244 bases of DNA from Escherichia coli (GTDB lineage Bacteria > Pseudomonadota > Gammaproteobacteria > Enterobacterales > Enterobacteriaceae): NCBI RefSeq assembly GCF_003334385.1, contig NZ_QOWN01000223.1; one strand, written 5' to 3'. The notes under the pieces are model-generated. The model was not told the origin of the DNA. It saw only the letters and a list, made by a program, of their open reading frames with translations, and made no database searches. The translations under genes were made by a program, and so were the position numbers. Positions 1 through 244 of this stretch are shown in pieces. How positions within the stretch are numbered: position 1 is the stretch's first letter; the number at the start of each line of letters is the position of its first letter.

Positions 1-134
1 CCGTATGCTTCGGTATCGCTGGCTGTTGCAGTGAAAGGAACCGCCTGCTCAATGTGCTCAAACTTCACCATGCAATTGACAGCAGTGTGATCTTTATCTG
101 CCCATTGCGGATTGCTTATTTTTTCCACATTCAT
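1..134 (-). CDS. Hypothetical protein, N-terminal fragment (5' end present, 3' end beyond window start). The 44 codons seen translate to MNVEKISNPQWADKDHTAVNCMVKFEHIEQAVPFTATASDTEAY. No family recognised.
   Basis: Reverse complement of 1-134 reads ATG AAT GTG GAA AAA ATA AGC AAT CCG CAA TGG ... GAA GCA TAC with no stop through the window edge. The ATG at 132-134 lies 6 nt downstream of an AGGAG Shine-Dalgarno. Amino-acid composition is balanced and protein-like, and codon choice is mostly common enterobacterial-type codons. The codon-aligned + strand frame is Cys/His-rich and looks like an antisense shadow. Confidence 0.7.
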   Translation of the reverse strand, partial: MNVEKISNPQWADKDHTAVNCMVKFEHIEQAVPFTATASDTEAY

Positions 135-140
135 GTTCAT

Positions 141-145
141 CTCCT
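141..145 (-). promoter_or_regulatory. Shine-Dalgarno / ribosome-binding site (AGGAG) for the downstream minus-strand CDS
   Basis: The + strand CTCCT at 141-145 is AGGAG on the minus strand. It sits 6 nt upstream of the ATG at 132-134 and directly abuts the ATG at 138-140. Confidence 0.6.
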
Positions 146-150
146 GTCTG

Positions 151-244
151 TCAGTATGCGCGCTGGAACAGCCCGATGCCTTCATTGTCATTTGTCGACG
201 TAATTTCATTACACACCATCCATGAGCCCGGAACTGAGGATAGT
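151..244 (-). CDS. Hypothetical protein, C-terminal fragment (5' end beyond window end). The 30 codons seen translate to LSSVPGSWMVCNEITSTNDNEGIGLFQRAY, then stop TGA at 151-153.
   Basis: This minus-strand frame is open from the right window edge to the TGA at 151-153 (+ strand TCA). Codon choice (CCG, GGC, CTG, CAG, CGC, ATC, GAA) looks more gene-like than the other two minus frames over the same stretch. The stop lies 16 nt upstream of the SD-preceded ATG of the next gene, a typical operon junction. The frame assignment is not unique (see findings). Confidence 0.45.
   Translation of the reverse strand, partial: LSSVPGSWMVCNEITSTNDNEGIGLFQRAY

Follow-up and report, generated by a model that had tools for sequence, protein, structure and literature searches.

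Gene boundaries at the junction of a tail-fiber gene and a DUF4376-type chaperone gene in Escherichia coli prophages

Proteins with a DUF4376 domain that are encoded right after a fiber gene act as intermolecular fiber chaperones in the Alteromonas phages V22 and A5 (PMC7289586, PMC10579305), and one of them, gp27 of V22, located directly after the fiber gene, was found experimentally to be required for active fibers (PMC7289586). In AlphaFold-Multimer models, three N-terminal strands of the chaperone form a sheet with the fiber head, atop a helical trimerizing body, and fiber-chaperone modules are common to unrelated phages (PMC10579305). Here we report the analysis of a stretch of 244 nucleotides (nt), hereafter the window, from contig NZ_QOWN01000223.1 of the Escherichia coli assembly GCF_003334385.1. 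The window is almost certainly an ordinary piece of an E. coli prophage, comprising the end of a tail-fiber gene, a 16-nt spacer, and the start of a gene for a DUF4376-type chaperone, all read on the minus strand. The locus resembles V22 gp26/gp27 and A5 gp8/gp9 in that the gene directly following the tail-fiber gene encodes a protein of ~195-240 amino acids (aa) with a DUF4376 domain in its C-terminal part, in that a three-strand N-terminal region is followed by a helical body (here in a structural model), and in that the fiber-plus-chaperone module is common to morphologically unrelated phages.

The Tfa-type proteins (lambda Tfa, Mu U/TfaMu, and P2 gpG; PF02413) are the other group of fiber chaperones with which the locus can be compared. 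It shares with them the gene order, in which the chaperone follows the fiber on the same strand after a short spacer, as well as a two-domain design, in which the N-domain co-varies and is co-transferred with the fiber tip and the C-domain is more widely shared. However, a Pfam scan of the chaperone described here gave no match to PF02413 (Caudo_TAP), only to DUF4376, and fold similarity to the solved Tfa structures was not found, none of them being among the listed sequence and fold matches. Some DUF4376 homologs also bear PF02413. A modular model of Tfa proteins, in which the N-domain must match the fiber tip, was reportedly put forward by North et al. 2019.

The original prediction for the window, made from its letters, offered two gene models. 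The preferred one places the end of the upstream gene at TGA 151-153 and the start of the following gene at ATG 132-134. The other has the upstream gene stop at TAA 209-211 and gives the following gene an N-terminal extension that begins at the overlapping ATG 207-209. The coordinates underlying both models are all correct on the minus strand (TAA 211-209 and ATG 209-207, which make up TAATG 207-211; TGA 153-151; GGAG 144-141; ATG 134-132). Frame 2 reads LSSVPGSWMVCNEITSTNDNEGIGLFQRAY (...NEGIGLFQRAY) and then TGA 153-151. Frame 1 reads TILSSGLMDGV, followed by TAA (211-209), where the original prediction had it end, and by TGA. Frame 3 is open across the whole window and up to its edge, with ATGs at 209-207, 191-189, 185-183, 140-138, and 134-132, and continues MNVEKISNPQWADKDH...; the further in-frame ATGs that had been placed at 183-185, 189-191, and 207-209 are thus present. 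The gene boundaries, the reading frame, the non-coding status of the spacer, and the domain content were established in this analysis, and the features are collected in Table 1.

Table 1. Features of the 244-nt window, with the kind of evidence for each (CDS, coding sequence; AF2, AlphaFold2; L001 and similar labels, loci compared in this analysis)
Feature	Window positions	Strand	Evidence
Tail-fiber 3' end, last 30 sense codons LSSVPGSWMVCNEITSTNDNEGIGLFQRAY, distal tip of receptor-binding domain	154..243	-	ORF continuity, relatives
Tail-fiber TGA stop	151..153	-	annotated CDS end, L001 6094 = window 151
Non-coding spacer between fiber and chaperone genes, 16 nt	135..150	-	indel and stop alleles with flanking genes intact
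Shine-Dalgarno GGAG, 6 nt ahead of ATG	141..144	-	sequence reading, duplex prediction
DUF4376 chaperone ATG start (MNVEK...)	132..134	-	annotated start, L001 6111 = window 134
Chaperone codons 2-44 and two bases of codon 45, part of N-terminal beta-strand domain	1..131	-	translation, AF2
TAATG, chance overlap within fiber codons TGT AAT GAA (C N E)	207..211	-	short ORF, shuffles
Alternative in-frame ATG (MNMNVEK), unlikely start	138..140	-	start in 2000 GenBank record AF151674
A6 homopolymer, chaperone codons 4-6, indel-polymorphic (A7 allele)	119..124	-	L005, cluster P0005

The window matches 29 of the 5,426 complete E. coli genomes, in every case on the chromosome and at 98.4-100% identity, as well as eleven phage records; in E. 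coli strains G1/2, G6/7, and G8 the match is exact (244/244 bases, 100%). In strain G1/2 (NZ_CP060083, locus L001), it lies inside a P2-like tail cluster with the baseplate genes V, W/gp25, J, and I, and the genes annotated there as 'phage tail-collar fiber domain-containing protein' and 'DUF4376 domain-containing protein' have the end and the start given in Table 1. Both boundaries are likewise annotated in a lambdoid prophage, where the genes adjoin gpJ (L002), and in a third type of prophage, whose genes include one for an N4-gp56-family capsid protein and one for an SU10-type adaptor (L003, L007, and L013). The isolated phage PhiR5_2 has identical boundaries, under the gene names 'tail fiber protein' and 'tail fiber assembly protein'. 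The chaperone start at 132-134 is annotated in L001, L002, L003, L007, and L010, both by PGAP and in recent phage annotations, and a spacer of 15-19 nt after the fiber stop, followed by a co-oriented chaperone gene, was found in L001, L002, L003, L007, L010, L012, L013, and L014. The model that the original prediction had preferred is the one annotated, in RefSeq or in the phage records, in every intact relative.

Frame 2 is continuous with fiber open reading frames (ORFs) of 532 aa (L001), 520 aa (L002), and 644 aa (L003), and fibers of ~650-690 aa are encoded in three other loci; the N-terminal parts differ among the fibers. The L001 fiber has the Pfam domains Phage_tail_fib (PF12571, E = 1.9e-51), two PF03406 (Phage_fiber_2) repeats, and Collagen, and the gene order V, W(gp25), J, I, fiber, so that its N-terminal domain, its repeats, and its position after J and I are those of a P2 gpH-like fiber. 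NCBIfam gave only collagen-like adhesin models, well under their cut-offs, and a PDB sequence search with the fiber and the DUF4376 proteins gave no match. The number of collagen repeats differs between fibers (P0132-P0134).

The end of the fiber gene was examined through its homologs. With the last 95 fiber residues as query, an exhaustive phmmer search found eight close homologs, all eight ending at ...QRAY, and otherwise yielded weak multi-stretch matches to large repetitive proteins, which were judged compositional; in a word-indexed protein search, the same 95-aa tip gave 11 close matches, all of them partial. The ...GIGLFQRAY frame, whose match to a known C-terminus was to speak against the start at 207-209, is the C-terminus of tail-fiber proteins of 520-690 residues and of every close tip homolog found, which, together with the MNVEK starts of the chaperone homologs described below, refutes that start. 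The position of the fiber TGA is unchanged in L012 and L013. More divergent tips end in ...CQRIA* (L011, ~800-826) and ...FQRIS* (L014, ~2470-2500), at equal distance from the conserved QR, and these tips as well as those in ...FQRAY* all have TGA stops and purine-rich spacers of 15-19 nt. The comparison suggests that a C-terminal [FC]QR-x-x motif is conserved in this tip family. Twelve distinct natural variants could be scored in 151-244, and 7/12 are synonymous in the fiber frame, compared with 2/12 in the extension frame and 1/13 in frame 1, where window position 244 is also scored. This pattern, from a small sample, points the same way, agreeing with the fiber frame as the coding one.

The chaperone of 200 residues has a DUF4376 domain (Pfam PF14301) at residues 73-182 (i-Evalue 2.9e-20) and is matched over its full length by phrog_1141 (E = 2.1e-79), with residue 1 aligned to position 4 of the 194 profile positions, so that the profile begins three positions earlier. 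Its AF2 model (predicted local distance difference test, pLDDT, 93.3) has beta-strands at 3-11, 18-25, and 32-37, helices at 70-90, 106-120, and 142-175, and hairpins at 93-104 and 129-139. N-terminal strands, a helical body, and a beta-hairpin are thus all present, as judged against the published description rather than by superposition (PMC10579305).

For the start of the chaperone gene, homologs were searched with a query composed of the proposed extension and the DUF4376 protein, and 549 were returned. The full-length homologs cover at most 89% of this extended query, namely all except the extension, and those with other N-domains share just its C-terminal 55-60%. Of 54 aligned sequences, 40 share the N-terminal domain; 38 of these begin within 0-4 residues of the MNVEK position, the remaining two have an unrelated 14-residue leader, and none of the 40 carries the MKLRRQ... 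extension. The N-termini (MNVEK, MNIET, MKIEK, MIIEK, MKVDK, MEIEK, MNIIS; pattern M[NKIE][IV]E[KT]) can be followed down to ~43% identity. A consistent start at the MNVEK position had been named beforehand as the finding that would speak against the extended protein, and this is what the homologs display. For ATG 132-134, pairing with the 16S 3' tail is predicted at -9.5 kcal/mol, and the GGAG of the Shine-Dalgarno (SD) sequence is invariant across the alignments of close relatives, with the sole exception of L016, a scaffold with a deletion discussed below; the purine-rich equivalents listed for L011 and L014 are GGGGAA and GAGGAGG. The homolog comparisons place the true chaperone start at ATG 132-134, in line with the phrog_1141 alignment at residue 1 and with a first AF2 strand that begins at residue 3.

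Natural alleles of the spacer show its non-coding status. In L004, L005, and L007, one A is missing (AAC to AC, window 136-137), which changes GGAGATGAACATG to GGAGATGACATG; the extension frame thereby terminates as ...DRQEMT*, and in L007, which carries this deletion, the fiber and DUF4376 genes are both intact and annotated. In L012 and L013, which also lack the ATG at 189-191, AGA is replaced with TAA (window 146-148), an in-frame stop four codons ahead of the chaperone ATG, again with both genes intact. L011, which is more divergent, has a TGA directly before the chaperone ATG.

The TAATG pentamer and the open upstream frame are no more than chance gives. TAATG was observed once versus 0.49 expected, and 86 of 200 shuffles contained at least one copy. 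In a null model that preserved the fiber protein and drew synonymous codons anew from local usage, the frame that runs into the chaperone ATG was open for at least 46 codons upstream, which is the real L001 value, in 41% of the trials, and a length of 25 codons or more was reached in 70%; ahead of the annotated starts of other genes of these loci, up to 41 codons are open. The other open frames across 151-244, the upstream in-frame ATGs, and the TAATG are incidental to the fiber coding sequence and are not translated as parts of genes; open alternative frames and a TAATG within a coding region are chance features here.

Three other readings of the junction were weighed against this layout. One has the chaperone start two codons earlier, at ATG 138-140 (MNMNVEK...), as in ORF-191C of phage P-EibC (GenBank AF151674). 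This ATG is in frame, 6 nt upstream of 132-134, and is the one used in the published record (L009 24-611, AF151674.1, where base 24 is window 140). Still, it is very unlikely to be the start: it abuts the GGAG with zero spacing, its 16S duplex over the 20 nt upstream is -6.2 versus -9.5 kcal/mol for ATG 132-134, and it becomes ATG ACA TGA in the 1-nt deletion alleles L004, L005, and L007. More divergent homologs have no equivalent of the Met-Asn prefix, and PGAP and the recent phage annotations are all at 132-134 and not at 138-140. ATG 132-134 is favored because the GGAG lies 6 nt upstream of it, and because ATG 140-138 abuts the GGAG and is broken in the deletion alleles. The start chosen for ORF-191C in the 2000 GenBank record is probably wrong.

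Another reading is recoding that yields a fiber-chaperone fusion. In the window allele this would take a +1 shift late in the fiber gene, and in the alleles with the 1-nt deletion it would take UGA-C readthrough. Ahead of its ATG, the chaperone frame contains no stop for 46 codons, an open stretch that overlaps the fiber end. In L004, L005, and L007 the deletion puts the chaperone ORF in the fiber frame, with a single TGA followed by C between the two (...QRAY*QTGDDMNVEK), and DUF4376 chaperones are said to resemble intramolecular chaperone domains (PMC10579305). Against it, no slippery heptamer XXXYYYZ was found in 151-244, and folding of the junction RNA did not reveal a stimulatory structure (z = +0.65). 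The open frame does not exceed chance, and the two genes do not keep a constant frame relation, which is +1 in the window and 0 in L007, with a TAA block in L012 and a TGA block in L011. The original prediction had likewise found a programmed frameshift unsupported. A rare recoding fusion would behave as do the self-cleaving intramolecular chaperone domains in the fibers of T5 and K1F; nothing supports it, and we regard a fusion in any of these forms as highly improbable.

The reading that had been set out as the second model has the upstream gene end at TAA 209-211 (...LMDGV*) and the chaperone start at ATG 207-209 through TAATG coupling. The TAATG is indeed present, and no stop interrupts the frame between 209 and 132. 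The resulting extension, MKLRRQMTMKASGCSSAHTDRQEMN, has 25 residues and not the 26 once counted, and does contain the rare codons TTA, CGA, and AGA. The claimed lack of an SD at ATG 207-209 does not hold, since the upstream GGAUGGUG has a predicted duplex of -9.4 versus -9.5 kcal/mol at the true start. We rejected SD strength as a discriminator of starts, as the score of ATG 207-209 matches that of the true one; the signals are equal at both and therefore cannot by themselves separate the two models, and it is the comparative evidence that does. The ...LMDGV* frame is closed by a TGA 13 codons upstream (L001 5992-5994), outside the window, and its sole ATG gives the 4-codon MDGV*. TAA 209-211 therefore cannot be the end of an upstream gene, and the real fiber ORFs of more than 500 codons occupy another frame. 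The locus shares the pentamer with the TAATG/ATGA stop/start coupling of phage operons, but its TAA and ATG belong to no real gene, and the real junction consists of a stop, 16 nt, and a start with its own SD. The reading of TAATG as a coupling motif fails, since its stop closes a 13-codon ORF and the extension led by its ATG is severed in alleles and absent from homologs. With that extension disconnected in L007 and in L012/L013 while both genes stay intact, present in no homolog, deprived of ATG 189-191 in L012, and hit by 10 non-synonymous versus 2 synonymous variants, and with motif and open frame at chance level, the start at 207-209 is refuted by sequence comparison as a conserved gene model and retains a negligible probability.

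A few points weigh against the layout of fiber end, spacer, and chaperone start as we present it. The codon-position bias comes from only 12 variants, 7/12 of which fall at one codon position (binomial P = 0.066), and the folding of the junction RNA is no better than that of shuffles. The SD-like GGAUGGUG makes some spurious initiation at ATG 207-209 possible, and in one 933-nt ENA metagenome scaffold (L016, P0002) the gene is in fact called from this ATG. That scaffold has a 36-nt deletion right after the fiber TGA (window 115-150), which removes the SD, the ATG, and six chaperone codons; as a singleton it could be a real mutant or an assembly artifact, and it has no bearing on the intact locus. 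Finally, translational coupling and the chaperone mechanism are what we infer, and the gene model rests on comparative evidence.

For the junction of fiber end, spacer, and chaperone start, we propose that ribosomes would finish the fiber at TGA 151-153 and start the chaperone at ATG 132-134 via the GGAG, and the short stop-to-start distance of 16 nt may let terminating ribosomes re-initiate on the chaperone gene. By analogy with the described systems, we infer that the DUF4376 protein is the cognate chaperone of this fiber tip. Its N-terminal beta-strand domain would bind the fiber tip and its helical DUF4376 body would trimerize, as modeled for V22 gp26/gp27. Such a pairing of tip and N-domain may be the reason why both travel together in one recombination cassette of ~640 bp.

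This cassette was delineated by a sliding identity profile of L001 versus L002, L003, L006, and L007, in which a block from ~5713 to ~6352 of L001 (~640 bp) is mostly at least 95% identical, compared with ~25-65% to its left and 62-80% to its right. The block holds the last ~127 fiber codons, the spacer, and the first ~80 chaperone codons, with the window in its middle, and is common to P2-like, lambdoid, and SU10-adaptor-type loci, that is, to three tail types. Its left edge lies in the collagen-like Gly-X-Y repeats and its right edge at the start of the DUF4376 domain, and the profile displays a modular design with a fiber-specific N-domain and a shared C-domain. Mosaic tail-fiber genes exchanged among unrelated coliphages were reportedly described by Haggard-Ljungquist et al. 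1992. As in the mosaic coliphage fiber genes (P2 H, Mu S, P1 S, and lambda stf), a distal fiber segment and the 5' part of the chaperone gene are grafted onto different fibers, here a P2-type tail-collar fiber, a lambda-type side fiber next to gpJ, and the fiber of an SU10-adaptor/N4-capsid-type prophage. The locus differs from them in that the left junction is in Gly-X-Y repeats and the chaperone is of the DUF4376 type and not of the Tfa type. The pattern fits the known tail-fiber mosaicism and an N-domain matched to the fiber tip.

The observation that led to this analysis is real yet ordinary, the biology is already known, and the RefSeq annotation is correct. The RefSeq gene boundaries are confirmed and the older GenBank start (ORF-191C, ATG 138-140) is corrected, which is of little importance beyond annotation. 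A modest practical use would be that the cassette is the unit to transplant for retargeting the host range of a phage or tailocin.

Several minor observations concern the window and its surroundings. An Rfam scan of the window gave only a sub-threshold match to Mu-gpT-DE (window 132-156, minus strand; 16.6 bits versus a gathering score of 49), taken as chance, and a promoter scan of the window found none. A terminator-like hairpin on the antisense (plus) strand at 96-112, one versus 0.2 expected, looks like chance, and a repeat search returned only 9-nt and 11-nt repeats at chance level. The A6 run in the chaperone gene is A7 in L005 (3113) and in protein cluster P0005 (MWKKISNPQW..., 236 member sequences). 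The L005 allele is annotated from a +1 ATG at window 128-130; the frameshift is absorbed by this overlapping +1 ATG in ATGAATG, and therefore only the first few residues of the protein differ.

In phage PhiR12_1, the DUF4376 gene is interrupted by a ~2.6-kb element with genes for an IS21-type transposase and an ATP-binding helper (L008 3206-5782; window 41-45), with an apparent GGCGG target duplication at the insertion. PhiR12_2, 2_star, and 4 likewise carry an insertion sequence (IS) in this gene. Because the host given in the records of the IS-interrupted phages is E. coli K-12 or E. coli C, the side-fiber chaperone may be dispensable for PhiR12-type phages with an IS, as these insertions suggest; a literature search on the PhiR phages found nothing relevant. 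In lambdoid phages, side fibers may be dispensable.

The genes that follow the chaperone gene differ between contexts. In lambdoid and SU10-adaptor-type prophages (L002 5488-6813, L003 5055-6566, L004-L007, and L009 970-2484), a YadA-like gene comes next, which in phage P-EibC (L009) is the immunoglobulin-binding protein gene eibC. In the P2-like context of the window, a convergent tail operon with a gpU-like gene and the tape measure gene is found in place of the YadA-like gene.
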